Below, in pieces: positions 1-60,135 of a stretch of DNA of 64,000 bases. Origin of the DNA: Alphaproteobacteria bacterium (GTDB lineage: Bacteria; Pseudomonadota; Alphaproteobacteria; G965222575). The notes below the pieces were generated by a model, which saw nothing but the letters and a program-made list of their open reading frames with translations, did not search any database and was not told the DNA's origin. The DNA lies in NCBI GenBank assembly GCA_965222575.1, contig OZ244958.1, positions 216,072-280,071 on the forward strand, read 5' to 3'. The position numbers were made by a program, and so were the translations under genes. How positions within the stretch are numbered: position 1 is the first letter of the stretch; each line of letters starts with the position of its first letter.

Positions 1-404
1 CGTTGTGCAAGTGCAATGCCGGTTCCCAAGGGGACATTTGCCCCTACAACGCCATGTCCGCCGTAAAAGTTTTTCTTCAAGGAAAACATATGCATACTAC
101 CGCCCTTCCCTTTTGAGTAGCCATTCCGCCTGCCAACGAGCTCAGCCATAACTCTCAGAGGAGACATATTCATAGCAATCATTTGACCATGGTCTCTGTA
201 AGTTGTAATGACTGCATCTTCTTTTTTAAGGACTGCAAGAACGCCTGCTACAACGGCTTCCTGTCCAAGGCACAGATGACAAAATCCCCCAATCTCGCCT
301 TTTGTGTACAGGACGCTCACGCGCTCTTCAAAACGTCTGATTCGTATCATCTGCCGATACAGCTCTATCATTTTGTCTTTTGAAAGAGAGAACTCTGTAG
401 CCAT
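1..404 (-). CDS. pdhA: pyruvate dehydrogenase E1 alpha subunit, N-terminal part (gene continues beyond window start)
   Basis: Minus-strand translation from the ATG at 404..402 gives MATEFSLSKDKMIELYRQMIRIRRFEERV...GKGGSMHMF, typical of PDH E1-alpha. The ftsB-pdhA neighbourhood is typical of alphaproteobacteria. The ORF is too short on this window to appear in the ORF track. Confidence 0.6.
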   Translation of the reverse strand, partial: MATEFSLSKDKMIELYRQMIRIRRFEERVSVLYTKGEIGGFCHLCLGQEAVVAGVLAVLKKEDAVITTYRDHGQMIAMNMSPLRVMAELVGRRNGYSKGKGGSMHMFSLKKNFYGGHGVVGANVPLGTGIALAQ

Positions 405-706
405 TATTCCTCCTTGTTTGGCAAGATGAGATATTCTGTTGGTGCGTGAAAGCCAAAGGTATCTTTTAATCGCTCTTCCAGCAAATCCATCTTTAAGGTA
501 TCAGAACTGAGATTGTTAACATGAACCGTTAAGGCTTCCACCTGTTTTTTAGTAGAGATAAGTTCTTGAGAAAGTGTTGTGCGTATGGTACGCAGCTTCC
601 AATAATCCCGTAATCCGAAATCATCCCAAACCATGCCGTAAGCTATGTACAATGACAAACACGCCAACACCACAAGACCAAAAATATATTTTAAGGATGC
701 TATCAT
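404..706 (-). CDS. ftsB: septum formation initiator (FtsB/DivIC family)
   Basis: 100 aa with an N-terminal TM helix followed by a coiled coil (KKQVEALTVHVNNLSSDTLKMDLLEERLK). Its stop overlaps the pdhA start (TAATG). Confidence 0.5.
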   Translation of the reverse strand: MIASLKYIFGLVVLACLSLYIAYGMVWDDFGLRDYWKLRTIRTTLSQELISTKKQVEALTVHVNNLSSDTLKMDLLEERLKDTFGFHAPTEYLILPNKEE

Positions 707-856
707 AGTCTATTTATTGTGACCGCTATTGATGAAATTGTCTAGTAAGAACTCAGTTCTCTCCCCTTTTCTCAAGTGTGTTGGGGGTTTTCGTCAAAGA
801 GAGGAGTAGAGACTCACCGCAACCCCTGCCTGCTTTATGGAGAAGAGGGGGGACTA

Positions 857-1369
857 CTAGTTTTCAGTAGGCACTGGTTGTGGCTGTAGGACGGACACAA
901 AGTTTGCTTCTGCTGTCATGTGATCATTGACGGTGCAGAAGCCTTTAAGGGAAAAGAATCGTTTCCCGCGCAGAGGTCTATCTGTGTCTACGATTACCTT
1001 AACAATCATAACATCTCCGGGCAGGACGGGGCGTTTGAAGACGAGGTTTGTGACTTTGACAAGATAGGGAGTCATGTGTCTGAGTTCATCAGTAGAGGTA
1101 TCGCGTGGAAACCATGGTTGTTTAGAGAAAGCTTCTAAGGATAAATAAATAAATAAAAGGCCTGTTTGGGCAATACTTTCCATTTGCAGGACGCCGGGCA
1201 TGATAGGATTGTTTGGGAAGTGTCCCTGAAAAAAAGGTTCGTTATAGGAAAGGTTTTTTTGACAGGTGATGGTTTTCCCTTTTTGTATGTCAAGGATTTT
1301 ATCCACCATGAGGAAGGGTGCCCTATGGGGTAGGAGACTTAAAATCTCTTCAATGGAAGATTTTGTCAT
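857..1369 (-). CDS. fabZ: 3-hydroxyacyl-ACP dehydratase FabZ
   Basis: LPHRAPFLMVDKILD...HFPNNPIMPGVLQMESIAQ hot-dog fold motifs. Confidence 0.8.
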   Translation of the reverse strand: MTKSSIEEILSLLPHRAPFLMVDKILDIQKGKTITCQKNLSYNEPFFQGHFPNNPIMPGVLQMESIAQTGLLFIYLSLEAFSKQPWFPRDTSTDELRHMTPYLVKVTNLVFKRPVLPGDVMIVKVIVDTDRPLRGKRFFSLKGFCTVNDHMTAEANFVSVLQPQPVPTEN

Positions 1370-1400
1370 GTCTCTACTTTTCCCATCATTGAGGTTTATA

Positions 1401-1967
1401 TTATTGTAGGGCTTTTGGTTTGTCTAAGGTAACGTTAGGCAAAGTGGCATCAAGTTTTTTTAAGAATTCCACAGTGAGGTCTAGGGAGAAGTGAAAATAA
1501 ATAGCGGATTCTCTTTGTAGCACGGCCATGACTTTTTGACTTTTGCCGTAATCAGCCACGAGTTTGCTTAAGGCATAGAAGATTTCATCATTAGCTTTTT
1601 CCATAGAGTTTTTGAGTTCATTTTCAGTTCTTTGGACATCTTCTTGGAATCCGAGGACGTTGCGGGCGAATTTTTGTCGTTCCAGCGCCCAGACTTCGGG
1701 AGAGACGAGCTCTTGGCTTTTTTCTAAGGCTAAGTCTTGTTCTTTTAGTTTTTCCTGTAGAGGCGTGAAGTAGATTTGTAATTTTTTCTTATGGTCTTCC
1801 AGTTGTTTTTCCACATCGGCATAAGCCTTTGAGTTTTTGACGACCTTTTCAAAGTCTACGAAAATGACTTTTCCCTCTAAGGATTCGGCAATGACAGGGT
1901 TAACGACGAACAGGCAAGCGGCCAGTGAGAAGAGTCCGCAAGAAAGATAAAAGCTGAAACGAGGCAT
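1401..1967 (-). CDS. skp: OmpH/Skp family periplasmic chaperone
   Basis: Signal peptide followed by a lysine- and glutamate-rich coiled coil. Position directly downstream of bamA fits skp. Confidence 0.6.
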   Translation of the reverse strand: MPRFSFYLSCGLFSLAACLFVVNPVIAESLEGKVIFVDFEKVVKNSKAYADVEKQLEDHKKKLQIYFTPLQEKLKEQDLALEKSQELVSPEVWALERQKFARNVLGFQEDVQRTENELKNSMEKANDEIFYALSKLVADYGKSQKVMAVLQRESAIYFHFSLDLTVEFLKKLDATLPNVTLDKPKALQ

Positions 1968-2009
1968 AAGAGGTCTCCTTGAAAATAATGTTAGGGAAGT
2001 TCTATCATA

Positions 2010-4277
2010 CTAAAATAGCGTACCAATGGAAAACAAAAAATATTGTGTTCTATCATAAGGTTCTGACCTGAGGACTTTTGTCCAGCTGAATTGGAGTTGT
2101 CCGGCGGGAGAATTCCAGATAAAAGCAAATCCTGTTGTGAGGCGGATTTTGCTACTATCCCAGTAGGAGCCTACGTTAGAGCCTGCATCAATTTTCGAAA
2201 GATTGCCCGCAAGAAGAAAAAACTTGCCAAAGAAACCAAGGCCTTGAGAGATAGGAAACTTCACAGAGCCCTCTGCTAAGTAATAAAAGTTTCCGCCTAA
2301 AGCTTCAAGTCGTCTTTTATCTCTAGGGCCTATGCCCCAATAGTCGAAGCCTAAGAATTCGTGTCCCCCTAAATTGAAGCGCTGCCCTGACTTGATGGTT
2401 CCCTGTCCAATGCCTGTGACATGCCCTATTTTGAAGATAGTCTGTAAGGTAAAGGTTTGGGATAAGGGATAGTAATGACTATACTTTGCTGTTGTTCTCA
2501 GATACTTATTGTGACCGCCGAGACCGGCGAGGTCTTGACTCCATCGTAAAGCAAGACCTCTTGTGGGATAGTAATAGTTATTGGTTAAGTTGTAATTGAG
2601 GGTATAGCCAACGCTTGAGGTATAAGAGACTCCTTCTTTATCCTTTAGGAGGTCGGAGGTTGCTTCTGGTAAATCCGTGATGAATGTTCTTGTTAAGGAG
2701 TAACGTGCTGATTGCGTTAAATTAGAAGTATACCGCCATCCGAAGCTTACTCCTGTTCCAATGGTGTTACCGTTGTAAGAATAATAGGTTCCTTTTTTGT
2801 AATTCTGTTTATAAAGATGCAAAGTTGCCGATAAGGGCAGTCCGCGAAATCTTGGCTCTGTATAGCTGAAGTTAATGCTAGAGGTTCCTTTTGAAGTATC
2901 CAAGGTGAGATTTATACCCCGTCCTGTTCCCATGAAGTTATTTTCGCCGAAATCAATCTGTAAGGAAAAGCCCTCAAGATTAGAATATCCGCCGCCAATC
3001 ATGAATCGACCAGTAGGCTGTTCTTTGACACTCACATTGAGAACGACCCACCCCTCTTTACTAGCTGGTTCTGTGGTGATAGAGACATTGGCAAAGAAGC
3101 CCGTTGCCATGAGTCGTCTTTCTGACTGTTTGAGGAAAATGTCATTGAAGGCATCCCCTTCTACAATGAGGAGTTCGCGTCTAATGACGCGGTCGTATGT
3201 TCTAGTATTCCCATAGATGCGGATTTTATCCACATACTGGTAGGGAGCTTGTTGCACGAGGAAGTGGAGATCCACAGTGGAGGCGGTATGATTTAAGGAG
3301 AGTTTTGGCATAATAGTGAGGAAGACATCATGTCCTTGCTTAAAGTTGCGGATAAGAGAATCCACAAGGTCATCCACAGCGAAATAGTTATAGACATGCC
3401 CGGGTTTGAGGGTAATGCGTTTTCTGAGGGCGTCGAGGTCTACATAGGAGACTTCTGAGTCGACAGTAATTTTGCCATAGCGGTACAAGTCCCCTTCTTC
3501 AATGACAAAGGTGAGGACTAAAGCCTGTTGATTGGCCATCAGTTCTGTGACAGAGGCGGTGACTTTCACATCAGCATATCCCCGCGATAAATAGTATTGC
3601 ATAATAAGCGACTGGTCATAAGCGATTCTATCGTTATCATACACCGAGGTAGCGGACGAAAATCGCAAGCCCTTACGTTCTTTAGAAATAATGACTTTTC
3701 GTAATGTTCTATCTGAGAAGACATGGTTACCGGAAAAGAGGATTTTTTCGATTTTACGTTTTGCACCAGAAAAGAGCTCAAAGACAACATCCACACGATT
3801 TTGGGTTCTATAAATGAGTTTAGGGGTGACTTTAGCGGCAAAGTATCCATTTTTAGAAAAGAGCTGTAAAATGCGGTTGACATCCGCTTCGAGTTTTCGT
3901 TTTGTGTAAGGGGCTCTGGATTTGAGGAGCAGGTCAGCACGCAAGGTATCATCTGAGAGTTTGGTAGACCCTTCAAAGAAGATTTTATTCACAATAGGCG
4001 TTTCTTTGACCGTAATGACTAAGACATTATCAGCTTGCATGGTGAAGGAGACATCTTCAAAGAGTCCCGTTTTATAGAGGTTTTTAAGAGCAGCATCCAG
4101 GATTTCATCGGTAATGACCATCTGTTTGCCTAAAGCGACATAAGAGAGGATGGTTTCTGTCTGTACTCTTTTGTTCCCGACGCACAGGACTTTTGAGATA
4201 GTCCAGGTACGGGCACTAAGGGGCTGTGACAAGAGCGGCGTCAGGAGAAAGAGCAAGAAGAGGAGGCGTTTCATCAT
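2010..4277 (-). CDS. bamA: outer membrane protein assembly factor BamA
   Basis: POTRA repeats plus a C-terminal beta-barrel ending in an aromatic residue. Likely start is MMKRLLFLLF (signal peptide) at 4277/4274, with the ATG overlapping the rseP stop (ATGATGA). Confidence 0.85.
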   Translation of the reverse strand: MMKRLLFLLFLLTPLLSQPLSARTWTISKVLCVGNKRVQTETILSYVALGKQMVITDEILDAALKNLYKTGLFEDVSFTMQADNVLVITVKETPIVNKIFFEGSTKLSDDTLRADLLLKSRAPYTKRKLEADVNRILQLFSKNGYFAAKVTPKLIYRTQNRVDVVFELFSGAKRKIEKILFSGNHVFSDRTLRKVIISKERKGLRFSSATSVYDNDRIAYDQSLIMQYYLSRGYADVKVTASVTELMANQQALVLTFVIEEGDLYRYGKITVDSEVSYVDLDALRKRITLKPGHVYNYFAVDDLVDSLIRNFKQGHDVFLTIMPKLSLNHTASTVDLHFLVQQAPYQYVDKIRIYGNTRTYDRVIRRELLIVEGDAFNDIFLKQSERRLMATGFFANVSITTEPASKEGWVVLNVSVKEQPTGRFMIGGGYSNLEGFSLQIDFGENNFMGTGRGINLTLDTSKGTSSINFSYTEPRFRGLPLSATLHLYKQNYKKGTYYSYNGNTIGTGVSFGWRYTSNLTQSARYSLTRTFITDLPEATSDLLKDKEGVSYTSSVGYTLNYNLTNNYYYPTRGLALRWSQDLAGLGGHNKYLRTTAKYSHYYPLSQTFTLQTIFKIGHVTGIGQGTIKSGQRFNLGGHEFLGFDYWGIGPRDKRRLEALGGNFYYLAEGSVKFPISQGLGFFGKFFLLAGNLSKIDAGSNVGSYWDSSKIRLTTGFAFIWNSPAGQLQFSWTKVLRSEPYDRTQYFLFSIGTLF

Positions 4278-5335
4278 GAGAAAAAAGTCAAGATATCGTT
4301 CCATGTTGCAAAGAGGATTAAGGCAATCAACAGGCATGCACCAGCAATCATGAGAAGTTCTTGGAAACGTCTAGGCAGTGGTTTTCCTATAAGGCCTTCT
4401 AGGAGATAGAAGAGCAAATGCCCTCCATCTAAAGCAGGAATAGGCAAGAGGTTGAGCAGGCCGAGGCTAATAGATAAGAGCGCTGTGAAATTAATCAGTG
4501 GAGCGAGTCCAGCACGTGCGGCTTCTCCGGACATTTTTGCAATACCAACAGGACCAGCTAAGGAGTCTATAGGCGTTTTTTTCACAAACAAGCCGCCAAC
4601 AGCGCGCGCAATCATCACAGTTAAGTCGTAAACTCTCCTGAGGCTTTGGAAGAGAGCTTGCGGAGGGGAGAGCAACTGATAGGCATACTGTCCACTGCTC
4701 ATAATCCCCAGTCTGCCCGGCGATACAGAAGCACTGGAACGGTCTAGTACAACAGAAAGTTCCGCCTCATCACGCCTGATGAGAATGTGAAAAGGGAGAC
4801 TGGGGGATTGTTGAAAGAATTGTACGATATCATTAAAGGTAGCAACTTGTGTGTCCCCTAAGGCTAGGATACGGTCGCCTGCTTTCAGTCCTATGGTAGA
4901 AGCCGCAGAATTGTTCTGTACCTTTCCAATAACGGGAGCAAGTTGCGGCTGTCCCGCAACAGTATAGAGAGCGACCAAGAGCAGTAGCGCTAAGGCAAAA
5001 TTCGCAACAGGTCCCGCTAGCACCACCAAGACTCTGGAGAGCAAAGGGTATTGCCAAAATTCCTTATGGTTTGGTTGGGGAATAGGGGGGGGGCGTTTCT
5101 TATCCGGAGGCAGCATATCCCCTTGGAACTTGACATATCCCCCTAGAGGAATGGAGGCAATTTGAAAGGAGGTGTTGCCTTTTGATTGCCACTTGTAAAG
5201 AGGCTTGCCAAAGCCTATAGAGAAGATTTTCGCCCTAATACCACAGGCCTTGCCAACCCAAAAGTGTCCCGCCTCGTGAACAAGGACAAGGAGGAAAAAG
5301 ATAAGAAGAAATGTCAAAAGTGAGAGAACAATCAT
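4274..5335 (-). CDS. rseP: RIP zinc metalloprotease RseP (site-2 protease)
   Basis: HEAGHFWVG motif, a PDZ domain and a C-terminal LDGG motif. The coding sequence contains a G9-10 homopolymer. Confidence 0.85.
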   Translation of the reverse strand: MIVLSLLTFLLIFFLLVLVHEAGHFWVGKACGIRAKIFSIGFGKPLYKWQSKGNTSFQIASIPLGGYVKFQGDMLPPDKKRPPPIPQPNHKEFWQYPLLSRVLVVLAGPVANFALALLLLVALYTVAGQPQLAPVIGKVQNNSAASTIGLKAGDRILALGDTQVATFNDIVQFFQQSPSLPFHILIRRDEAELSVVLDRSSASVSPGRLGIMSSGQYAYQLLSPPQALFQSLRRVYDLTVMIARAVGGLFVKKTPIDSLAGPVGIAKMSGEAARAGLAPLINFTALLSISLGLLNLLPIPALDGGHLLFYLLEGLIGKPLPRRFQELLMIAGACLLIALILFATWNDILTFFS

Positions 5336-6522
5336 GAAAGGGCTTCGTATTGCGGGCGTTGTTGTAGCGTTTGTAAGGTGAGTTTTCTCGTCTGCTGATT
5401 CACCTCACTGATATCTTTGAAATCTCGCATAGTACTCTGTTGCCTTGTTTTAGAAAAACACTCCATGACGCTATGTATGAGAGGAATAATATCTAAAAAA
5501 CTGATTTTTCGTTGAAAGAAAGCTTCTGCGACCACTTCATTAGCAGCATTAAAAGCACAACAAGCAGCCTGCCCTAAGGCAGCAGCTTCCCGCGCGATGC
5601 TAACAGCAGAGAAGACCTCTTCGTCTAAAGCGTCGAAGGTGAGGTGTTGCATCTGTGTTAAAGACAAGATAGGAGACAAGATATCACGTTCTTCTGGCCA
5701 TTGCCAAGCATAAGCTAAAGAGACTTCCATGGACGGGGGAGACAGGAACGCTATGATAGTGCCATCCTGTTTTGTCACCAGTGCATGAACAATGCACTGT
5801 GGGTGAAGGACGACCTCAATTGTGTGAGGAGGCGTGTTGAAGAGGACGGAGGCTTCAATAATTTCCATGCCTTTGTTGACGAGGGTTGCGGAGTCCAAAG
5901 AGATTTTTTTCCCCATAGACCATGTTGGGTGATTAACAGCCTGTTCGGGGGTGATTTGTTTCATTTTGTGTTTTGGGAGGTCTCTGAAGGGCCCTCCTGA
6001 AGCGGTGAGGGTTAGGGTATGGAAGGGTGAGGGGGTGTTCAGTCCGTTGAGGAGGCGAAACAGGGCATGATGTTCTGAGTCTACGGGGATGATGGAGGTC
6101 TCTGAGGCGGCGGCGATTTTTTGCAAGAGTTTGCCTGCGCAAACGACGGTTTCTTTATTAGCCAAAGCGAGAACCCGCGCCGCTTTAGCAGCAGCCAAAG
6201 TCGCAGGGACGCCGTCAAAGCCTGAGATAGCCGCTAAAGTCCAATCGACCTTAATAGAAGCAATCTCTTCAAGGGCTTTTTCTCCATAACTAACAGAGAT
6301 AGGGAACTGTTTCAGTGCTGCCTTGAGAATTCTCGCCTCTCCTAAAGAGGCAACAACGGCATGGCAAGGCAAAAAGCGCCGGCATTGTTGTATCATCACT
6401 TGGAGATTACGATGTCCGGTGAGTGCTACAACTTGAAAGCTTTTTGGTGGGAGACGGTTGAGAATATTCAACGCCTGTCTTCCAACGCATCCAGTAGAGC
6501 CTAAAATGGTGATTCGTCTCAT
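5332..6522 (-). CDS. dxr: 1-deoxy-D-xylulose 5-phosphate reductoisomerase
   Basis: ITILGSTGCVG N-terminus and full-length Dxr similarity. Confidence 0.9.
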   Translation of the reverse strand: MRRITILGSTGCVGRQALNILNRLPPKSFQVVALTGHRNLQVMIQQCRRFLPCHAVVASLGEARILKAALKQFPISVSYGEKALEEIASIKVDWTLAAISGFDGVPATLAAAKAARVLALANKETVVCAGKLLQKIAAASETSIIPVDSEHHALFRLLNGLNTPSPFHTLTLTASGGPFRDLPKHKMKQITPEQAVNHPTWSMGKKISLDSATLVNKGMEIIEASVLFNTPPHTIEVVLHPQCIVHALVTKQDGTIIAFLSPPSMEVSLAYAWQWPEERDILSPILSLTQMQHLTFDALDEEVFSAVSIAREAAALGQAACCAFNAANEVVAEAFFQRKISFLDIIPLIHSVMECFSKTRQQSTMRDFKDISEVNQQTRKLTLQTLQQRPQYEALS

Positions 6523-6528
6523 GGGGGG

Positions 6529-7404
6529 TTAGAGGAGTATGAAGAGGTAAAGAGCATAAAAGCAAGTAGCAGGGAGAAAACCATCCCATCTGTCCCAGAT
6601 TCCGCCGTGTCCGGGCATAATGTTGCCGGTATTTTTGAGACCGCAACGGCGTTTGAGGAAAGAGAGGACAAGGTCACCGATTTGCACGATACAAGCGAGG
6701 GCAGCGGCTAGGAACAGGGGGGCGAAGAGGTGTGGGTTTTGGAGCGGAAAGGTTTGGGGGAAGAAGGAGCTGAAGAATGTACCAAAGGCTATAGCGCAGA
6801 AGAAACCGCCAAAGAATCCTATCCAAGTTTTGTTGGGAGAAGCAAGTGGCAAGAGTCTCCAAGGGAAGAAGCGTCTGAAGACGGCGCCAAAAAAAAAAGC
6901 AAAGGCATCCATACTCCAGACAACGACAAAGAGCCAAAGCATGAAAGCGGTTCCTGTTGGGTAAGAGAGGATGAAGAGGAAGGCCAGGGGAAAAGCTAAG
7001 ACATAGAGGTATCCTAAGATGAGGGCTATGCCATCACGCGTGGTGTTGAAGGTTGCAAGGGCAAGGAGGAGGACTGAGAGGGCAATGGCTATAAGATAGA
7101 GGAAGTGTTCGTTCTGGGAGAGGAGAGGGAAAGCGATGACAGGCCAAGAGACAAGGGGTATTGTGATGAGAAAAAGAGGATTTGTAAGGCGGAGGTGCCA
7201 TTTTTTTTTCTGTATTTCATGAGTGGGGAGGAGGAGAGGAAGTCCTTCATAGATGAGGAGAGCAAGCGGCAAGAGGAGGAGCCACCGCATACTAGGGTCT
7301 TCTAGTAACAGTAAGGAAAGCAACATGACAATCACATAAAGAGAGCCTGAGAGGCACCGCAAGGCACTATCATGTGGAAGAGAAAAGTATTGTAACCAGT
7401 GCAT
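6529..7404 (-). CDS. cdsA: phosphatidate cytidylyltransferase
   Basis: Polytopic membrane protein with a C-terminal GHGGxxDRxD-like motif (PGHGGIWDRWD). True start is uncertain. Confidence 0.7.
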   Translation of the reverse strand: MHWLQYFSLPHDSALRCLSGSLYVIVMLLSLLLLEDPSMRWLLLLPLALLIYEGLPLLLPTHEIQKKKWHLRLTNPLFLITIPLVSWPVIAFPLLSQNEHFLYLIAIALSVLLLALATFNTTRDGIALILGYLYVLAFPLAFLFILSYPTGTAFMLWLFVVVWSMDAFAFFFGAVFRRFFPWRLLPLASPNKTWIGFFGGFFCAIAFGTFFSSFFPQTFPLQNPHLFAPLFLAAALACIVQIGDLVLSFLKRRCGLKNTGNIMPGHGGIWDRWDGFLPATCFYALYLFILL

Positions 7405-7439
7405 ACTAGAAGTTGAGGAATGAGAGTGGGGGGGAGGGG

Positions 7440-8144
7440 TTAGAGACTGCCGTAAGACCTATTACGCTTTGAATAAAGGTTTATTATCTCACTAAAAAGG
7501 TCTTGTGTAAAGTCTGGCCAAAGGACTTTAGGGAAGGCAAGTTCGGCGTAAGCGGCTTGCCAGAGGAAGAAGTTACTTAATCGGCATTGTTTGCCGGTTC
7601 TGATGATGAGGTCTGGAGGGGGCAGGAGATGGGTCATGAGGTTTTTTTCTATGGTCTCTTCAGAGATTTCCAGGGGGTCTATCAGGCCTTTTTTGACTTG
7701 TTGTGCAATCTGTTTTGTAGCGTTTAAGAGGTCATGTTTTCCGCCATAGTGGAAAGCAATGGTGAGGGTGAGGCTTGGGCGGGTGATGGAGGAGGCTTCA
7801 TGGGTCATCATTTGGGAGATATCCTGTGGTAGGGACTGTATTTTGCCGATGAACTGAAGGTGAATATTGTGTTGGAGGAAAAAGTTTTGATATTGAGGGA
7901 AAGCAGATCTGAAGAGGTTATAGAGCAAGGTAATTTCACTTTGTTTTCTGCTTTTATTTTCAGTGGAGAAGGCGAACAAAGTGAGGTATTGGATATGGCT
8001 AGAAACGGCTTGTTGGGTAATACGTTTTGCGACTTCTATGCCTTCTGTGTAGGCTGTTTTCATGGGGAGGTTTTTCTGTTGTGCCCATCGTCTATTACCA
8101 TCCATGATACAAGCGACATGGCGTGGTGTTGTTGAACGTGTCAT
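7440..8144 (-). CDS. uppS: undecaprenyl diphosphate synthase
   Basis: HVACIMDGNRRWA motif. Confidence 0.85.
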   Translation of the reverse strand: MTRSTTPRHVACIMDGNRRWAQQKNLPMKTAYTEGIEVAKRITQQAVSSHIQYLTLFAFSTENKSRKQSEITLLYNLFRSAFPQYQNFFLQHNIHLQFIGKIQSLPQDISQMMTHEASSITRPSLTLTIAFHYGGKHDLLNATKQIAQQVKKGLIDPLEISEETIEKNLMTHLLPPPDLIIRTGKQCRLSNFFLWQAAYAELAFPKVLWPDFTQDLFSEIINLYSKRNRSYGSL

Positions 8145-8674
8145 GAAGGTTTTAAGATATCTTGTTCTTTCGCGGTAGCAAGTTCATGGATTTGTGCGAT
8201 TTTTTCTTCAGTGAGTTTATTGAGTTGTTTTTTCAGCCTGTGTAATTCGTCCTGAGAGGGTGTTTGTGTTTTGATATTGTCCAAGGCGGAGCGTCTTACA
8301 TTTCGGACAGCCACGCGGGTGCTTTCTGCGTATTGGGCAACAAGTTTCGCCATTTCTTTTCGTCTTTGTTGAGAAAGAGGTGGCACATTGAGGCGTATAA
8401 TATTGCCGTCTCTTTGGGGGGTGAGGCCGAGATGGGATTTCAGAAGACTTTTCTCAACGTTCTCAATATTGTTTTCGTCCCACACTTGAACAGTCAGCAG
8501 TTGCGGTTGCGGGGCGGCTAGACTAGCCATTTGAGACAGCTTCATTTTCGCACCATAAGATTGAATCTCTAGGTGTTCCAGCAACCCAACATGCGCTTGC
8601 CCCGCTCTGATACCGCTGAGTTCCGTTTTGAACACCTCCACAGCCCCCTGCATGCGTTTTTCAAAATCCCTCAT
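8141..8674 (-). CDS. frr: ribosome recycling factor
   Basis: 177 aa with Frr-like sequence throughout. Confidence 0.9.
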   Translation of the reverse strand: MRDFEKRMQGAVEVFKTELSGIRAGQAHVGLLEHLEIQSYGAKMKLSQMASLAAPQPQLLTVQVWDENNIENVEKSLLKSHLGLTPQRDGNIIRLNVPPLSQQRRKEMAKLVAQYAESTRVAVRNVRRSALDNIKTQTPSQDELHRLKKQLNKLTEEKIAQIHELATAKEQDILKPS

Positions 8675-50486: not shown

Positions 50487-51167
50487 TTACAACACCCACA
50501 AAATCGTTTTCATGGCACAAGCAAGCACAAGCATGACAAACACATTATCATCGATTTTAAACCTCTCAGCATAATACTCAGCACTTCCACCGCAAAGGAC
50601 AACAAAAACGCCCATCAGCAGCACCTGCTCTGTCCCCAAGTCCTCGCCTCGGTACCACTCCCACCAAGTCATCCCAACAACTTGTAAAAGACAAAAGGCA
50701 CCAAATCCAAAGACACAAAAAGCTAGAAAGCCCACCAGAGTCTTGGAAAAATCTCCCTCCGCCAATGGGGAACTGCGCCTATACCACCTGCCCACAAGAG
50801 CAGCAGCACTATCACCAATAATCATAACACAAAGGCTCGTAGACGCAACCCCTTTTGAAAAAAAACCAACACACAAAACAACCCCCAAAAGCACATACAC
50901 ACCCCCTGTAAAAACTCTATAGCCCGTCTGTACACACTCCTCGGCACGCAAAAGAGAACCAAAAAATCCATGATAAACCCTGTCCACTACCCCACCCCTA
51001 TGCCGTAACACCTCCACCACAACCAACCCAACTAACAAAGACCCAAAAAGCCATAAGCTAAACCCCCTAGAACACAAAGCCACCACAGGAACCATCCAAA
51101 GCGACGACAGATGAATGCCCTTGCGTAACACCTCAGACCCATAAGAAATAGGAACCCCCTCCCTCAT
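50487..51167 (-). CDS. CTP-transferase-1 family membrane protein (dolichol/polyprenol kinase-like)
   Basis: Polytopic protein with an IIGDSAAALVGRWYRR motif resembling the SEC59/DGK1/VTE5/CdsA family. The start is uncertain; the ORF is open to 51248. Confidence 0.35.
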   Translation of the reverse strand: MREGVPISYGSEVLRKGIHLSSLWMVPVVALCSRGFSLWLFGSLLVGLVVVEVLRHRGGVVDRVYHGFFGSLLRAEECVQTGYRVFTGGVYVLLGVVLCVGFFSKGVASTSLCVMIIGDSAAALVGRWYRRSSPLAEGDFSKTLVGFLAFCVFGFGAFCLLQVVGMTWWEWYRGEDLGTEQVLLMGVFVVLCGGSAEYYAERFKIDDNVFVMLVLACAMKTILWVL

Positions 51168-51219
51168 CACTACTACCCTCCTCACATACCCTTTAACTTC
51201 TGTCCAAACTCCTCCCCCA

Positions 51220-52980
51220 CCCTCTTGCCCGTGATACCCGAAGGACACGCCCTCTCCATAGATTATGCCATATGCCCTTGAACATCAAGAGAACTAGCAC
51301 CCCTCTTGCCCGTGATGCGGAAGGGTACTAGCCATCTTCATGGTTATGCCATATGCCCTTGAATATCAAGGGAAAGTTCCACCCCTTTTTCGTACAATAC
51401 TAACTGCCTCCCTCATCCCCCACCTAGCAACTCTTGCCCGTGATGCGGAAAGGTACTAGCCATCTTCATGGTTATGCCATATGCCCTTGAATATCAAGGG
51501 AAAGTTAACCCCTTTTTCGTACAATACTAACGCCTGAGAGAGGGTTATAGAGAGAAAGAAAACACCGCTTTTCATATACTTGCTAACTTTGACTCATTGA
51601 GTAGAAAATTATTGCCTTGTTTCAAAATGGTGTATAATATTCTAAATCCAGGCAAACCACCCTCCTTTGTAGAATTAATGACTCCAAATGACCGTGTGCT
51701 GAAGATTGGTTGGGAAGCGGTACTAGCCATGCTGGTATGAGACAAAAAACCTCAGGGGAGAGGTGACGGTATGAATTTGGCCAGAGATAGCCATGATGAG
51801 AGTAAACTTGATACATTACAGAACTGTTATTTGTTGGGTGATGCCATATGACTTTCTCAAAAATTGAATATCAAGGGAAAGTTCCACCCCTTTTTCGTAC
51901 AATACTGGAAAAACTGCCTCCCTCATCCCCCAACTTGCCGGAAGATGATTCATTGAATGCAGAGGTCATTTATTGAAGCGGCATTGGAATGCGTTACGAT
52001 ATGGGGTCGTTCTCTTAACATAGGACGGAAGATAAAAAACCTACATGAAGACAGGCGAGAACTAATAATTGCAAATTTTCCTGTAAGACAACTTGTAATA
52101 TGGAATCGCGGAAGCACGTTCCACCCCGTCTATATTGCCGCCAATATATGAACTTATTTACATTATTGCGGGCAGGAACTGGCGATCCCAATCAAATATC
52201 TTGCTGAATTTCGATATTGGGGAGATGTCTGGCGCATCAATCCCGAAATGAGAAATCTACACCCGGCACCATGCCCATTTGAACTGGCGATCAAGGGAAT
52301 AGATGGGCCACCCCTTTTGCCGTACAATACTGGGCTTGCCTGCCCTCATAGGAGTGCCATTCTATCTGAACGATCTTTCCCCCGAGTACAGGGAAATGTT
52401 TTATCGGAAAAGGAATATCTTAAACCAATCTTTTATGCAATCTTTGATAGCCTCTCACTTATGCCTTTCCTGTAGAAATATCATTGTGATCTGCTCGCTA
52501 AAGTACAATAAACCAGCCTCATGATTTTGTCAAGGGAATGATGGATGTCTATAATAATCTTGATTGCCGGACTCTGTACATGGGAGGTATTTTGAATACG
52601 TAATCGGGGAGACTTTAGCAAAGGGGATTCGCCATTTATATTACCAAGCTGAGGTTTTGCATGTGCCATTGGCGACTTGACTGGTTTTTATACCATGAAA
52701 CAAGCCCTGTTTCTGTCTCGTAAAACTAGGCTCGTGATAGATGGAAACAGGCAGCTTATGAAGCCATGGCATTGAAGAAGGTTTATGTCCAAGCCACCAA
52801 TTACTTGGTGACTATGGAAGAGTTAAGTGCAACCGATAATAAGAAAACATCAGCACCGCAGACAATAGACTATTTCTTGGTCGCTACTAAATCTGAATAT
52901 AGCGAGGCTTTGGAAGACATGCCAAACAAGGGAAAGTTAACCCCTTTTTCGTACAATACTAACGCCTGAGAGAGGGTTAT
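51220..52980. repeat. non-coding region containing at least 6 full or partial copies of a dispersed repeat (core ...gccatatgCCCTTGAATATCAAGGGaaagtt(c/a)acccctttttcgtacaatact...), including a 2x tandem unit of about 130 bp at 51300-51540
   Basis: Copies are at about 51268, 51330, 51460, 51845, 52290 (diverged) and 52925. The core holds a perfect 7-bp-stem hairpin. No ORF longer than 75 aa lies in the region. Confidence 0.8.
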
Positions 52981-53036
52981 AGAGAGAACCCCCCCCCCCG
53001 CACTTTTAGGGTAGTGTTACTCCTCTAGTAGCGGTA

Positions 53037-54014
53037 TCAAAGAGCCTTCTCTTGGAGGAATTTTTGTGCTTCCAAAGCAGCTTGACAGCCTAAAGCAGCA
53101 GCAGTCACAGCTTGCCTATAGACCTTATCCGTCACATCGCCAGCAGCGAAAATCCCTTCTACAGGAGTCTTAGGAGAGCCCGGCTCTACCACAAGATAGC
53201 CATCCTCATCCATAGGAAGTTTTCCCTTGAACAAATCAGTTTGAGGAATATGCCCTATCATGACAAAAGCCCCGTCTGTGGAGAGAGAGTGCGTTTTCGA
53301 AGTTTTGACCTGTTGACAAGAAACAGCGGCAAGAGTTTTGTCTCCTAAGAATTCCCTCACCACTGTATCCCAAAGAAAAGAAATATTCTGCTGTTTCCAC
53401 AATCTATCTTGGAGAATTTTTTCAGCCCGTAAGGTAGCACGTCTGTGTATTAGGACAACTTCTCTACAGACCTTAGAAAGGTGCAAAGCCCCCTCCACAG
53501 CAGAATTTCCACCGCCAATAACACAGACCTTTTGACCCTTGAAAAAGAATCCATCACAAGTCGCACAAGAGCTTATGCCAGCCCCTTTGAATTTTTCTTC
53601 CGACGGCAGTCCGAGCCATCGCGTTTTCGCTCCCGTAGCAATAATGACAGTGTTGGCATGATATTCCTTGTGATTCTCTGTTTGACACCTAAAAGGGGGT
53701 TGCAGTGCTAGTGTGGGTGAGAGGTCAAGATGAGTAAGAGCATCATCTTCAAGAATAACCCCAACACGGCGCGCTTGTTTTTCCATAGCAAGCATTAACG
53801 CAGGCCCAGAAATAACCTCCTCAAAGCCGGGATAATTCTCAACCTCCTCCGTAATGGTAAGCTGTCCCCCAGGAGACAATCCCTTCAAAACAACAGGCTC
53901 CAAGCCCGCACGCGCCGCATAAATAGCAGCCGTATACCCCGCCGACCCAGACCCCACAATCAAACAGTCCGTCTCAATAAAACCCCCCCCACTACCTAAT
54001 ACTTGTTTCATCAT
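53037..54014 (-). CDS. trxB: thioredoxin-disulfide reductase
   Basis: Redox-active CATCDG motif and FAD/NADPH GxGxxG motifs. Confidence 0.9.
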   Translation of the reverse strand: MMKQVLGSGGGFIETDCLIVGSGSAGYTAAIYAARAGLEPVVLKGLSPGGQLTITEEVENYPGFEEVISGPALMLAMEKQARRVGVILEDDALTHLDLSPTLALQPPFRCQTENHKEYHANTVIIATGAKTRWLGLPSEEKFKGAGISSCATCDGFFFKGQKVCVIGGGNSAVEGALHLSKVCREVVLIHRRATLRAEKILQDRLWKQQNISFLWDTVVREFLGDKTLAAVSCQQVKTSKTHSLSTDGAFVMIGHIPQTDLFKGKLPMDEDGYLVVEPGSPKTPVEGIFAAGDVTDKVYRQAVTAAALGCQAALEAQKFLQEKAL

Positions 54015-54112
54015 ACCCTTTCACCATAAGACAATACCCCCCTATACAAAAAAGTTCTTACTACAAAATGCTAGGTCTTTCAAGCGTGTCCCTCATCAAA
54101 ATGCGCGAACCC

Positions 54113-54742
54113 TTAACTGTGCGCAACCTGTACCGAAAGACAATGCGGTTTTAAGCCAATTTTTTTCAAGACCTTTTCCCACCGACAAGAAGGGTCTTTA
54201 TCAAACAAAATATCAGGGTCAGCCGGACAATGTAACCACCCATTTTGTTGTAGCTCAGCCTCTAATTGCCCCCCAGCCCAGCCCGCATAGCCTAGCGCAA
54301 TGAAAATTTTCGCCTTTTTTTGATTGAGAACTCTCGATAAAATCCCCGAAACCCAAGTGTCAGTCTCAAAATCCGCCTCCGGTGGATCCCCGCAATCATC
54401 TTGTTCATCGCTCGCACTACACTTAATCTTTCTCTTAATCAAATTGCTCTGTAGCAAAAACCCCTTTCTGGTATCTACCGGTCCGCCTAAATATACACAG
54501 GTCTTACAAGCCTTTTTATCAGGCTCAATACCCATCTGTAAGAGAATATCCCCTAAGTTCACCCCCTCTAAAGGCTTGTTAATGATAAAGCCTACAGCTC
54601 CTTCCGTAAGAGAATGAGAGTAAATAAAAATGACAGACTGCCGAAAGCGAATATCACGCATGAAAGGGGTCGCCACCAAAAAATGTCCTTCTAAAAATCC
54701 TCTAGGCATCAATTCATTCTGTGTGCATTTGTCTTGTACCAT
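54113..54742 (-). CDS. YqgE/AlgH family protein (UPF0301)
   Basis: GHFLVATPFMRD...VIFIYSHS...GAVGFIINKP pattern. Confidence 0.7.
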   Translation of the reverse strand: MVQDKCTQNELMPRGFLEGHFLVATPFMRDIRFRQSVIFIYSHSLTEGAVGFIINKPLEGVNLGDILLQMGIEPDKKACKTCVYLGGPVDTRKGFLLQSNLIKRKIKCSASDEQDDCGDPPEADFETDTWVSGILSRVLNQKKAKIFIALGYAGWAGGQLEAELQQNGWLHCPADPDILFDKDPSCRWEKVLKKIGLKPHCLSVQVAHS

Positions 54743-54812
54743 ACAAAAAATATCCTTCTAAAAATCCTCTAGGCATCAATTCATTCTGTGTGCATTTGTC
54801 TTGTACCATACA
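54685..54812. repeat. 67-bp direct tandem duplication spanning the yqgE start codon and RBS
   Basis: tccttctaaaaatcctctaggcatcaattcattctgtgtgcatttgtcttgtaccataca occurs twice in tandem. The upstream ATG copy is out of frame and gives a 31-codon ORF. Confidence 0.85.
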
Positions 54813-54930
54813 AGAAAAAGATTGATGGTTTATTATGTCATACTATTACGGATTTTGCTAATAAAATTGGTTTTATAGCACAAGGATGTGGTACCCTAGA
54901 GAGAAGTAGTAAGGGGTTCTTGAGTGTAAA

Positions 54931-55404
54931 ATGCCAAAGATAATGAAAAAAAGAGACACAGTTTTAGTGGTGATAGACAATACTCAAGAGTGTATGGTAG
55001 CACTGGAGTTTGGCGCTAGTCACGTGTGGCGCTATGGCGGAAAACTCGCCCTCCTCACCATTATGCCCGTTCCCTCTATCTATCAGTGGTCTTTTATAGC
55101 GAAAGAAATGAAGTTAGAAAAACTTGAAGAGGCTAGAAAAAAACTATTCCCCATCAGCAAAGATATACAAGCACGTTACGGCATAGGCGTTCAAACCATC
55201 ATTAAAGTCGGATACAAGAAAAAGGAGGTGATGAAAATTCTGCATACCAACCCCTCCATTAGTCGCTTGATACTAGGAGCAGCAGTAGGCAAAAATCCCG
55301 GTGAACTCATACAGTACCTCACCAAACGCACAGCACTTATTCATACCCCCATTATGGTGATACCCGCTAACATCACCCCCGAGGAAGTGGAGCAGTTTGT
55401 CTAA
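54931..55404 (+). CDS. universal stress protein (UspA)-like
   Basis: 157 aa with a VLVVIDNTQEC...LALLTIMPVP pattern typical of the Usp fold. Confidence 0.45.
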   Translation: MPKIMKKRDTVLVVIDNTQECMVALEFGASHVWRYGGKLALLTIMPVPSIYQWSFIAKEMKLEKLEEARKKLFPISKDIQARYGIGVQTIIKVGYKKKEVMKILHTNPSISRLILGAAVGKNPGELIQYLTKRTALIHTPIMVIPANITPEEVEQFV

Positions 55405-55492
55405 TAAGCTCTAAAAATCCCCCGTTCATGAGTGCCCGCCAACACGCAATGCAACCCCCTAGGGGGCAACCCCTCCCCCTTTAGCCAATCCC

Positions 55493-56218
55493 TTACGGAA
55501 GAGGAGGAGGAAAGAGGGCATCATCATCACCATCAACCTTAAAATCCAATGCGCCTAGTAATTTCGAGACATCTTTAATATTATGCTTTGTTCTGTAAGC
55601 AAAAAACTTCAACGGGTCACTCACTGTTAACTTTCCATAAACTTTGATTGTCACTACGGAACCTTGAATTGCCAAATCAAAAGCCGACTGGGTTGTGTGT
55701 TCAATACCAGAGATCAGTTCATATCTAAGCCCTATCACCGGCGTTACATGGGGATTAAAAACGAGTGGATTGTAGCCGTAAGCAATACCGTGAGCCGTAC
55801 CACCCCTCAAGTGTAGTCTAGCGTTGGCTAGCGTGCCGCCATCAAACTTAAACTCTAACGCCACCCCTGCCTCTTCCAAATCAAGAAGCCCCTCCCTATA
55901 CGAAACCTTTATATATACTGATTCTATCCCCCATAGGCGGAGAATTGGATGTTGATACCCCGGTGTAATTGTGAATTCCCCTACCTGTGCAAAAGACCCG
56001 TAAGGAGTGGCATTCTCACATTCTGTGGTGTCATCCTCCTTTAAGTCACACTCAATATTTTCCCCTTGATTCAGTTGTATCGGGGTCACAGTATAAGCCC
56101 CAAAGTTTAGGTGTGTATCTACTGTAATCTCAGGCTCCACTGCTAAGAGGAGTTGCCCTCCTAAGAGGAAACCTCCTATGGCAAGGCAACTGATAGAGAT
56201 TTTGAAAGACTTCTTCAT
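55493..56218 (-). CDS. secreted hypothetical protein, paralog 1 of a mosaic pair
   Basis: Signal peptide MKKSFKISISCLAIGGFLLGGQLLLA. Shares its N-terminal ~85 aa and C-terminal ~40 aa with the 56341..57078 product. Its own sigma70-like promoter (TTGACA-17-TATTAT) and an AGGAG RBS are visible. Confidence 0.7.
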   Translation of the reverse strand: MKKSFKISISCLAIGGFLLGGQLLLAVEPEITVDTHLNFGAYTVTPIQLNQGENIECDLKEDDTTECENATPYGSFAQVGEFTITPGYQHPILRLWGIESVYIKVSYREGLLDLEEAGVALEFKFDGGTLANARLHLRGGTAHGIAYGYNPLVFNPHVTPVIGLRYELISGIEHTTQSAFDLAIQGSVVTIKVYGKLTVSDPLKFFAYRTKHNIKDVSKLLGALDFKVDGDDDALFPPPLP

Positions 56219-56259
56219 CTACAAGCTCCTGTAGTTATTTATAGACGGGTTGGGTTGCC

Positions 56260-56292
56260 TATATAATAGGACTCTTCAAGCCCTTTGTCAAG
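56260..56292 (-). promoter_or_regulatory. sigma70-like promoter of paralog 1 (TTGACA-17-TATTAT)
   Basis: Minus-strand reading: tcTTGACAaagggcttgaagagtccTATTATataggcaacccaacccgtctata...AGGAGcttgtagATG. Confidence 0.45.
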
Positions 56293-56340
56293 ACCCCCTA
56301 GGGGTTTTTTTCCCCCTAAGGGGTTCCCCTAGCCAATCCC

Positions 56341-57078
56341 TTACGGAGTATGAGGAATGGTTCCTCGAAAGCCTCCGTCTGAGCGAGGTTTTTGGATATC
56401 ATCACTATCATAGACAAGAAAGTTCAGGGCGCCTAGTAATTTCGCATCTTTAATATTATGCTTTGTTCTGTAAGCAAAAAACTTCACCGGGTCCTCCACT
56501 ATTAACTTCCCATAAACTTTGATTGTCCTTTCTTTTGTAGCCTCTTGCCTGTTGCCTTGTATACGAGAATCGCTAAATATCAACCAGCTCACTGGTGACT
56601 CAAGGGGCTTAAACACCTCCAGGGCAGCAACATCATCAACCCTCTTCCCAGTGGACCTCTTCAGCGTAACGCGCGAGGGGACGCCCTCTAGGTGAAACCT
56701 TAACTCTAACGCCACTCCCGCCTCTTCCAAATCAAGAGACCCCTTCCTATACGAAACCTTTATAAATGCATGAGAGCTATAATCAGTCCCGCCGCCTCCC
56801 AACGGACTGAAGGTTTGCAACTGCGGTCTAATTTTGAATACCCCTACCTGTGCAAAAGACCCGTAAGGAGTGGCATTCTCACATTCTGTGGTGTCATCAG
56901 GCTTTAAGTCACACTCAATATTTTCCCCTTGATTCAGTTGTATTGGGGTCACAGTATAAGCCCCAAAGTTTAGGTCGTTATTTACTGTAATGGAAAGCGC
57001 TGCTAAGAGGAGTTGCCCTCCTAAGAGGAAACCTCCTATGGCAAGGCAACTGATAGAGATTTTGAAAGTCTTTTTCAT
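56341..57078 (-). CDS. secreted hypothetical protein, paralog 2 of a mosaic pair
   Basis: Signal peptide MKKTFKISISCLAIGGFLLGGQLLLA. The conserved termini flank a divergent central region. Confidence 0.7.
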   Translation of the reverse strand: MKKTFKISISCLAIGGFLLGGQLLLAALSITVNNDLNFGAYTVTPIQLNQGENIECDLKPDDTTECENATPYGSFAQVGVFKIRPQLQTFSPLGGGGTDYSSHAFIKVSYRKGSLDLEEAGVALELRFHLEGVPSRVTLKRSTGKRVDDVAALEVFKPLESPVSWLIFSDSRIQGNRQEATKERTIKVYGKLIVEDPVKFFAYRTKHNIKDAKLLGALNFLVYDSDDIQKPRSDGGFRGTIPHTP

Positions 57079-57100
57079 TGTCTATAGGCTCCTTTGTTAC

Positions 57101-57436
57101 TGCCTATAGACGGGTTGCCTATACGGGTTGCCTATAGACGGGTTGCCTATAGACGGGTTGCCTATAGACGGGTTGCCTATAGACGGGTTGCCTATAGACG
57201 GGTTGCCTATAGACGGGTTGCCTATAGACGGGTTGCCTATAGACGGGTTGCCTATAGACGGGTTGCCTATAGACGGGTTGCCTATAGACGGGTTGCCTAT
57301 AGACGGGTTGCCTATAGACGGGTTGCCTATAGACGGGTTGCCTATAGACGGGTTGCCTATAGACGGGTTGCCTATAGACGGGTTGCCTATAGACGGGTTG
57401 CCTATAGACGGGTTGCCTATAGACGGGTTGCCTATA
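57101..57436. repeat. 15-bp tandem repeat (cgggttgcctataga), 20 perfect copies plus partial end copies, in the 5' leader of paralog 2
   Basis: Perfect periodicity from 57124 to 57423. The array sits between the predicted -10 element and the RBS of the 57078 gene. Paralog 1 has a single degenerate copy at the same place. Confidence 0.95.
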
Positions 57437-57470
57437 TAATAGGACAATTCCAAGCCCCTTGTCAAGAAAA
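57437..57470 (-). promoter_or_regulatory. sigma70-like promoter of paralog 2 (TTGACA-17/18-TATTAT), duplicate of the paralog 1 promoter
   Basis: Minus-strand reading: cTTGACAaggggcttggaattgtccTATTATataggcaacccg... This is nearly identical to the 56260-56292 element. Confidence 0.45.
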
Positions 57471-57590
57471 AACCCCCTAGGGGGGAAAAAAACCCTAGGG
57501 GGAAAACCCCTCCGCAAGAGTTTACTTGGGGGGGGAAGCCCCTAGGGGAAAACCCCCTAGGGGGCTAGCCCCCCCCCTACAGCAATTTTA
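57465..57590. other. cluster of CCCCTAGGGG palindromes and G8/C9 homopolymers
   Basis: The palindrome recurs at least four times here, and again downstream of each paralog (55456-55470, 56287-56330, there followed by T7). These may be bidirectional terminators or a regulator binding site. Confidence 0.4.
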
Positions 57591-57634
57591 GGAGGCTTCA
57601 TCACAGCAGAGAAAAGCACAATGCTTAGAGGCTT

Positions 57635-60040
<2,406 letters not shown>

Positions 60041-60052
60041 TTATAGTGAAAC

Positions 60053-60135
60053 TGGAGGGAGTTGGATTCGAACCAACGTAGGCGTGAGCCAACGGGTTTA
60101 CAGCCCGTCCCCTTTAACCACTCGGGCATCCCTCC
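60053..60135 (-). tRNA. tRNA-Tyr (anticodon GTA)
   Basis: Manual cloverleaf: acceptor GGAGGGA, anticodon loop CTGTAAA, variable arm, T-loop TTCGAAT, 83 nt. Confidence 0.8.

Follow-up and report, generated by a model that had tools for sequence, protein, structure and literature searches.

A small family of putatively Sec-exported mosaic proteins and a probably hairpin-derived variable leader repeat in an alphaproteobacterium

This study analyzed a 64,000-nucleotide stretch of contig OZ244958.1 (positions 216,072 to 280,071 of the forward strand; assembly GCA_965222575.1, Alphaproteobacteria bacterium), hereafter called the window, in which two adjacent genes, A and B, encode mosaic paralogs and the leader of B carries a long array of a 15-bp repeat. 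We consider it probable that A and B belong to a small family of Sec-exported beta-sandwich proteins whose genes are shuffled as cassettes, and that the leader of B contains a length-variable repeat that is derived from a Shine-Dalgarno hairpin and has a graded effect on expression. The presence of a variable-number repeat in a fast-evolving secreted family is supported by the comparisons described below, and this repeat may further act as a contingency or expression switch. The distinctive features of the locus are a 15-bp unit taken from a hairpin arm, an orphan protein family, and the shuffling of whole cassettes. An original prediction made from the window sequence had pointed to the two genes, their promoters, the repeat, and the adjacent palindromes, and all of these elements were found where it had placed them (Table 1).

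The proteins encoded by A and B are 60% identical overall (BLASTP, E = 1e-70), and the similarity is distributed in blocks in the order conserved, variable, conserved, variable, conserved, and variable. The opening ~260 nt of the two genes are 87-100% identical, with ~85 near-identical amino acids at the N-terminus. A middle island (FIKVSY..G.LDLEEAGVALE) shows ~85-90% identity, and a block of ~35 amino acids close to the C-terminus (KVYGKL.V.DP.KFFAYRTKHNIKD) shows 80-100% identity, whereas both intervening segments and the C-terminal tails are only 17-60% identical. The original prediction had described near-identical ends around an unrelated center; the similar ends were found, but a conserved island interrupts the center and the extreme C-terminal tails differ.

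Block-wise synonymous divergence (dS) between A and B, calculated by the Nei-Gojobori method, was 0.07 in the N-terminal block, saturated in the first variable block, 0.30 in the middle island, 2.4 in the second variable block, and 0.28 in the C-terminal block. Because dS varies more than 30-fold within one gene pair, protein selection alone is not a sufficient explanation, and gene conversion or segment replacement is indicated. The cassette-like mosaicism proposed for these paralogs is thus recombinational. The central segment of A groups with another paralog, P0007, to which it is 56% identical, compared with ~40% identity between P0007 and the other full-length paralogs.

Further evidence was obtained from a sister strain represented by three contigs (L001, L082, and L083) of the ENA metagenome assembly ERZ25072854, which were found by cluster look-ups and have 2-4x coverage. 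Contig L082 is collinear with window positions 53635-55429 over 1.8 kb up to the cassette, at 96-100% (about 99%) identity, and its Usp protein is identical to that of the window; on this basis, we assigned it to a close strain of the same species. At the position of gene A, however, L082 carries a different cassette with a frameshifted paralog of the P0009/P0007 type, the identity of which ranges from 47% to 92% by 100-nt block. Synteny between L082 and the window stops exactly at the upstream cassette end, and L082 positions 2700-5065 hold a small open reading frame (ORF) and an RNase J gene instead of B and gyrB. A B-type cassette is present in L001, where it lies between dapB and rimP-nusA and not beside gyrB. 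Its protein, P0008, is 91% identical to B, and the DNA is 95% identical. BLAST comparison of L001 positions 7314-8544 with window positions 57475-56313 revealed that only the cassette itself is shared, with weaker similarity reaching ~75 nt further upstream through the palindromes. The cassette ends therefore coincide with the synteny breakpoints, and in a genome that is almost identical elsewhere, the cassettes vary the most. The GyrB cluster contained no second member, so the gyrB side of the sister strain was not found there, and L083, the contig carrying gspG, ends inside gspE.

The two alleles of B differ in a manner that also points to exchange among paralogs. The initial 315 nt are identical and are followed by patchy differences, with a ratio of nonsynonymous to synonymous divergence (dN/dS) of about 1.4, and 14 of the 22 amino-acid differences reproduce the states of other paralogs. 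Every cassette with readable upstream DNA (4/4) has its own -35/-10 promoter, Shine-Dalgarno sequence, and ATG, although one of the genes is frameshifted. This finding argues against a single expression site fed by silent donors. Taken together, the sequence comparisons indicate that segmental gene conversion between paralogs and relocation or rearrangement of entire cassettes diversify the family, so that strains about 99% identical in housekeeping DNA hold different cassettes at one site.

Conserved ends, hypervariable cores, and segmental gene conversion are characteristic of Anaplasma msp2/p44, Borrelia vlsE, and Neisseria pilE/pilS. The present family resembles these systems in its conserved blocks around variable cores, in mosaic patches that match other paralogs, and in the extreme divergence between otherwise near-identical strains. 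It differs from them in that no single expression site with promoterless donors was seen among the four readable cassettes, each of which has its own promoter, Shine-Dalgarno sequence, and putative terminator, and in having no sequence or fold relationship to them.

The second component of the locus is the array in the leader of B. The original prediction had placed about 22 copies of a 15-bp repeat in the 5' leader of the upstream gene, and Tandem Repeats Finder confirmed this with 22.5 copies. When read in the register TATAGGCAACCCGTC, the array comprises 21 perfect copies, a single unit of 13 bp, and an incomplete end, and a pattern search for this unit allowing up to 2 mismatches returned 23 matches against 0.07 expected. 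The -10 element of B precedes the array and the Shine-Dalgarno sequence of that gene follows it; because the only credible promoter thus lies upstream, the array is expected to be transcribed. It is noncoding: the unit contains no ATG, GTG, or TTG, and an in-frame stop precedes the ATG of B. We rejected a role as coding sequence or as an upstream ORF, since the ORFs that run through the array start within the -35 element or upstream of it. An interpretation as a replication origin or as iterons was also discarded on the basis that the locus shows no GC-skew switch and, by inspection, no similarity to DnaA boxes.

In L001, the corresponding leader contains 26.7 perfect copies of the same unit and measures 400 bp, compared with 336 bp in the window. 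The instability of copy number suggested by the original prediction is therefore consistent with the two alleles, which carry 22.5 and 26.7 copies and are not invariant. The leader of L082 contains one unit, TATTCTATAGGCAACCCGTCTATAAATAACTACAGGAGCTTGTAGATG, and that of A one unit plus 5 bp, so that all four cassettes differ in leader state (1 unit; 1 unit + 5 bp; 22.5; 26.7). These data indicate that the array is a genuine variable-number repeat between strains. Misassembly of repeats and paralogous cassettes could in principle have generated the array size or the differing contexts, given that collapse and chimeras classically arise at perfect arrays and at near-identical cassettes scattered over a genome and that the sister contigs have only 2-4x coverage. 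We regard such an artefact as very unlikely: two assemblies independently yielded the array together with an identical unit and the same promoter and gene, the homology boundaries fall at cassette ends and not inside repeats, and L082 remains collinear with the window at ~99% identity up to the cassette.

The Shine-Dalgarno sequence is held in a hairpin, and the 15-bp unit corresponds exactly to the 5' arm of this hairpin together with its AACCC loop. In both B and its sister allele, the final repeat unit forms this 5' arm and pairs with the stretch just 3' of the Shine-Dalgarno sequence; the predicted hairpin has a folding energy of -15.5 kcal/mol (z = -4.0) in B and -15.7 kcal/mol (z = -4.7) in the sister allele. 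A shorter hairpin, CUACAG/UUGUAG, occupies the same place in the leaders of A (56219-56234, where it holds the Shine-Dalgarno sequence) and L082, with one compensatory exchange of U-A to C-G. The hairpin arm is quasi-palindromic around CTATAG, which allows adjacent units in the sense RNA to base-pair with one another by way of two G-U pairs. Folding of the sense leader RNA (367 nt) yielded a string of 10-bp hairpins with an energy of -156.6 kcal/mol and z = -13, compared with -133.2 kcal/mol and z = -0.4 for the antisense RNA.

In the ancestral-type leader, as in L082, the 8-bp sequence TATAGGCA occurs twice, 15 nt apart, and this direct repeat would be a natural seed for slippage. We infer that the 5' arm and loop of the Shine-Dalgarno hairpin were amplified in cassette B, with slipped-strand mispairing or unequal recombination starting from TATAGGCA...TATAGGCA as the most likely mechanism. 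Slippage driven by hairpins in single-stranded DNA was considered and rejected; the gene-strand DNA folds at -7.9 kcal/mol (z = -1.3), which does not exceed shuffled sequences.

The same arrangement can also be read at the DNA level, with the quasi-palindrome GTCTATAGGC as the operator of a family-wide regulator and the 22-27 copies as a roadblock or titrating sink. In each of the four leaders seen, this sequence is conserved right after the -10 element, and it contains the palindrome CTATAG. Nevertheless, the surroundings of the cassettes yielded no regulator gene, successive sites spaced by 15 bp fall on opposite faces of the helix, and the RNA hairpin explains the conservation equally well; we therefore consider an operator array very unlikely.

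With respect to function, the array would be transcribed as an untranslated leader of ~340-400 nt with 11-13 tandem hairpins, and a structured, C-rich leader of this length is generally expected to affect elongation, processing, or stability. Its most likely effect would be a graded change in B expression, probably a reduction as the leader lengthens, which could arise through premature termination, pausing, or processing. On/off switching of B appears less likely than such a graded change.

Related behavior has been described for shorter repeats. In the 5' untranslated region of Moraxella catarrhalis uspA2, AGAT repeats number 6-23 copies depending on the strain, and the copy number modulates the expression level with an optimum (Attia & Hansen 2006, summarized in PMC4679880). 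The uspA2 repeat likewise follows the transcription start and precedes the start codon, its copy range is similar to the 22-27 copies found here, and its effect concerns expression level and not reading frame, an effect that would apply to B by inference. The unit measures 4 bp there and 15 bp here, the present unit is a hairpin arm, and the proteins are unrelated. In Haemophilus influenzae hmw1A/hmw2A, a higher number of 7-bp repeats results in less transcript and protein (PMC8262952). As in our locus, the repeat lies upstream of the coding region in a variable paralog pair, which encodes adhesins in that species. The graded 'volume control' demonstrated experimentally for hmw is the behavior that we predict for B, although the 7-bp unit is situated in the promoter region, whereas the 15-bp unit forms hairpins in the leader. 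Marine Beggiatoaceae carry TAACTGA heptamer arrays in 5' leaders at 169 loci genome-wide (PMC4679880). These are also direct repeats between promoter and start codon, for which a post-transcriptional action has been proposed, but the 15-mer described here is expanded at one cassette and is single-copy in the paralogs.

A further reading is a classical contingency locus, in which fast and reversible changes in copy number would turn B on and off within a clonal population. As expected of such a locus, the tandem repeat lies in the 5' leader of a predicted secreted factor, past the promoter and ahead of the start codon of a gene for a putatively exported variable protein; the copy number differs between ~99%-identical strains, and uspA2 (PMC4679880) and hmw1A (PMC8262952) offer precedents. 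However, the 15-bp unit is that of a minisatellite and falls outside the 1-9-bp range of typical contingency repeats, which alter the reading frame or promoter spacing; whole-unit changes here leave both intact and provide no evident on/off mechanism, and folding revealed neither a threshold nor a parity effect. A contingency locus of this type is thus decidedly unlikely.

Several points weigh against a graded regulatory effect of the hairpin-derived repeat. The predicted probability that the Shine-Dalgarno sequence is unpaired decreases only from 0.75 to 0.52 over 1-30 units (partition function computed for 0-30 units), and the terminal Shine-Dalgarno hairpin forms at any copy number in equilibrium folding. 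A parity switch, in which odd or even numbers of units free or hide the Shine-Dalgarno sequence, was rejected, as equilibrium folding gave no odd/even effect. This small, parity-free drift in accessibility does not support a simple thermodynamic translational switch. The promoters, the transcription start, and export are all predictions. The array is known from two alleles only, both from assemblies, and the repeat counts and contig structure carry assembly risk; the leader comparison covers four cassettes (A, B, L001, and L082) and leaves out five further paralog loci, and the conserved Shine-Dalgarno hairpin rests on two hairpin sequence types only. Moreover, tandem arrays occur elsewhere in the window, with units of 51 bp (x 14), 67 bp (x 2.1), and 128 bp (x 1.8) as well as within coding sequence, and array formation may therefore be a neutral property of the genome.

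The last point leads to the alternative that the array is a neutral minisatellite, a by-product of genome-wide tandem duplication, of the kind seen in other reduced intracellular alphaproteobacteria, in a tolerant 5' leader and with no regulatory role. In addition to the neighboring arrays within 64 kb, including the intergenic 51-bp x 14 array, this alternative is consistent with the barely shifting accessibility of the Shine-Dalgarno sequence and with the single-unit leaders of A and L082, although the L082 gene is frameshifted. It does not account for a unit that is the arm of the Shine-Dalgarno hairpin and not a random stretch of leader, nor for ordered folding that is specific to the sense strand (z = -13 versus -0.4). 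Structured untranslated leaders of more than 300 nt are seldom without an effect on expression, and the neighboring 67-bp x 2.1 repeat is unchanged between the strains, whereas the array differs. On these grounds, we regard a neutral array as possible but somewhat unlikely and favor a hairpin-derived leader repeat with a graded effect on B.

As read from the DNA, each gene lies in a self-contained cassette that comprises, in order, a G4/C4 palindrome block, a near-consensus sigma-70 promoter, a short leader with the Shine-Dalgarno sequence in a predicted hairpin, the gene, and a conserved 3' tag with palindromes; the palindrome block has a predicted role as a terminator or insulator. The original prediction had assigned the same TTGACA-17-TATTAT promoter to both genes; this spacing holds for A, but the spacer of B is 18 nt. 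The pattern TTGACA-N16-18-TAnnnT occurs only 6 times in the window on both strands, and three of these sites precede a Shine-Dalgarno sequence and a gene (A, B, and rpmG). The palindrome CCCCTAGGGG has 5 exact matches in the window against 0.09 expected, all inside 55456-57563. A palindrome downstream of each gene had been proposed, and such palindromes were found; further copies lie upstream of the promoters, which goes beyond the original description. In both the window and L001, the palindromes are restricted to cassette flanks, and they coincide with the homology boundaries of the comparison between the window and the sister strain. We speculate that they also serve as recombination boundaries.

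Folding of these flanking blocks gave differing results. The region 3' of A, which doubles as the intergenic spacer toward the convergent usp gene (55405-55492), folded no better than shuffled sequence. The hairpin 3' of gene B has a stem of 11-15 bp (-26.6 kcal/mol, z = -2.7) and ends at the -35 element of A; its U tract is weak, with only UCUU following, and it is terminator- or insulator-like. The palindrome block upstream of the B promoter folds at -76 kcal/mol (z = -3.1), and two sites in that region with a stem plus U tract (57511-57497 and 57487-57473) score as terminator-like. These two hairpins would insulate B from gyrB read-through. The block between gyrB and the B promoter also contains two homopolymers, G8 at 57528-57535 and C9 at 57569-57577. 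The G8 run (C8 on the gene strand) aligns to C6 in L001, indicating that homopolymer length is variable too.

A more far-reaching possibility is that the locus represents an undescribed system, in which promoter-to-terminator units bounded by CCCCTAGGGG-type palindromes would relocate and recombine among chromosomal sites, in contrast to silent donors that supply a single expression site, and the leader would act as an RNA rheostat, with each unit a spare 5' arm of the Shine-Dalgarno hairpin and the copy number setting mRNA fate or translation of B. We consider this unlikely; if it were true, the organism would possess heritable, graded control over which family member dominates.

Table 1. Positions of the two cassettes and their neighbors in the window
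Feature	Position	Strand	Description
Gene A (= P0004)	55493-56218	minus	ORF, 241 amino acids; predicted Sec-signal protein of the orphan family
Gene B (= P0001)	56341-57078	minus	ORF, 245 amino acids; beta-sandwich modelled over residues ~73-235
Promoter of A (predicted), TTGACA-17-TATTAT	56291-56263	minus	11/12 consensus positions
Promoter of B (predicted), TTGACA-18-TATTAT	57465-57436	minus	-10 end overlapped by first repeat unit
Leader of A	56219-56262	minus	one 15-bp unit and a 5-bp AACCC duplication
15-bp minisatellite TATAGGCAACCCGTC	57101-57436	minus	period 15, 22.5 copies, 98% matches (Tandem Repeats Finder)
Shine-Dalgarno hairpin of B (predicted)	57080-57111	minus	GUCUAUAGGC / GCCUAUAGAC, 10 bp; AAAGGA in 12-nt loop
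3' module of cassette A	55405-55492	minus	tag CCGTAAGGGATTGGCTA, then G/C-block palindromes; CCCCTAGGGG at 55456-55465
3' module of cassette B	56292-56340	minus	tag CCGTAAGGGATTGGCTA and palindromes at 56295-56304 and 56313-56322
5' module of cassette B	57466-57600	minus	palindromes at 57474-57483, 57492-57501, 57539-57548, and 57554-57563; G8 and C9 tracts
gyrB	57635-60025	minus	upstream neighbor of cassette B (context)
gspG, gspE, gspF	60526-63781	minus	type II secretion genes just beyond gyrB (context)

The protein family itself is an orphan. Among 5.8 billion proteins, we identified seven members (P0001-P0007), all encoded on one contig of 1,215,846 bp. A HMMER profile search of 1.84 billion representatives added only the 110-amino-acid fragment P0009; two further hits, P0010 and P0011, are long repetitive proteins with summed weak scores and were rejected as spurious. 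The coding regions of P0009 and P0007 overlap in different frames, and the homologous sister-strain sequence reveals that the two are halves of one frameshifted paralog. The family profile found no relatives in scans of species-representative genomes, JGI metagenomes, and viral contigs, and a scan of the JGI metagenomes with the repeat sequence returned no further allele. For the A/B proteins, no Pfam or NCBIfam model matched, no sequence-profile match was obtained in the PDB, and a Foldseek search with the model of B gave nothing significant. The family appears to comprise about eight members restricted to one species, and A and B would be two of these lineage-restricted, Sec-exported beta-sandwich proteins.

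Structure prediction had been proposed as a check on the original prediction, and AlphaFold modelled B as a generic beta-sandwich (Table 1), with a predicted local distance difference test score (pLDDT) of 62 and a predicted template modelling score (pTM) of 0.60. Confidence was low for the 72 N-terminal residues, even though no other part of the family is as well conserved. The N-terminus reads MKKTFK followed by ISISCLAIGGFLLGGQLLLAA, with a hydrophobic core of ~20 residues and then LLA-A, and has the appearance of a Sec-type signal peptide. This call was made by inspection and hydropathy calculation, which gave a mean hydropathy of 1.4-2.0 over residues 4-32. The N-terminal region of the mature protein contains a conserved pair of cysteines (residues 56 and 66). 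Sec-dependent export of the family is plausible on this evidence. A lipoprotein was rejected, as no lipobox was found and the cysteine in the signal peptide is not conserved among the paralogs; an outer-membrane beta-barrel was rejected because a sandwich was modelled and the C-terminus lacks the aromatic residue typical of outer-membrane proteins. Compared with P0001 and P0004, the paralogs P0002, P0003, and P0005 contain an in-frame duplication of 5 amino acids (GGFLL, 15 nt) in the hydrophobic core of the signal peptide, in the region that corresponds in B to window positions ~57030-57045, which represents a slippage polymorphism.

Upstream of the cassettes, a tRNA-Tyr gene (60053-60135) lies on the same strand directly upstream of gyrB, together with the gsp genes. 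On the basis of adjacency, the gsp products may provide an export route for the A/B family. Past the window end, a few kb upstream of gsp, L083 positions 344-7410 encode a contractile-tail set (sheath, tube, and tape-measure-like proteins) and a large Eco57I-type restriction-modification fusion gene.

The window has a G+C content of 46% and encodes BamA, FlhA, SdhA, DnaE, and type II secretion components, and its GyrB is at most 56% identical to those of the diverse Alphaproteobacteria recovered. The divergence of GyrB, the gene content, and the 1.2-Mb contig suggest a deep-branching, reduced, and probably host-associated alphaproteobacterium. Reduced intracellular alphaproteobacteria such as Ehrlichia ruminantium carry intergenic tandem arrays that vary among strains, some of them upstream of genes. 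The present organism is similar in combining a small, probably host-associated alphaproteobacterial genome with intergenic and coding arrays, but it is only distantly related to anything recovered, and the array of B belongs to one particular RNA hairpin within one particular family of cassettes.

Other repeat-bearing regions were observed in the window. The intergenic 51-bp x ~14 array (36440-37169, minus-strand sense) is situated in the gap that follows ubiA and precedes the TTGACA-...-TATACT promoter of rpmG (L33). In every 51-bp unit, AAGGAGG is followed by an ATG and a 10-codon mini-ORF (MRKKEGGAYS*), and the array resembles a tandemly amplified translation-initiation region. A look-up for a sister-strain copy of rpmG, beside which the length of this array could be compared, returned none. 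On the plus strand, positions 15541-19976 contain four consecutive ORFs (447, 252, 401, and 347 amino acids) with no Pfam match; these carry coding tandem repeats with units of 27-105 bp, are proline-rich, and are candidate repeat effector or surface proteins. Positions 51150-53037 form a region of ~1.9 kb without an ORF of at least 100 amino acids. Besides the 128-bp x 1.8 repeat, an element of ~35 nt, CAAGGGAAAGTTnCACCCCTTTTTCGTACAATACT, is scattered through this region in no fewer than five copies; the region may represent decayed genes or a small family of dispersed repeats. The 67-bp x 2.1 repeat overlies the start of an AlgH-like gene in the window (54677-54818) and in L082 (1047-1188), with equal copy number; gene calling split the AlgH-like gene of L082 into two ORFs, perhaps because of a frameshift or of an error at low coverage.

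If these inferences hold, an uncultured, reduced-genome alphaproteobacterium would diversify an exported protein family through cassette shuffling combined with a length-variable hairpin leader. Such a finding would extend repeat-based 'volume control', known mainly from the 1-7-bp repeats of Moraxella and Haemophilus, to a minisatellite, to an RNA-structure context, and to a different bacterial class. The array and the cassette content offer ready, high-resolution strain-typing markers for the organism, and the orphan beta-sandwich family is a candidate host-interaction factor. Even if the array proves neutral, the locus provides a clear example of paralogous cassettes driving synteny breaks between strains that are ~99% identical.

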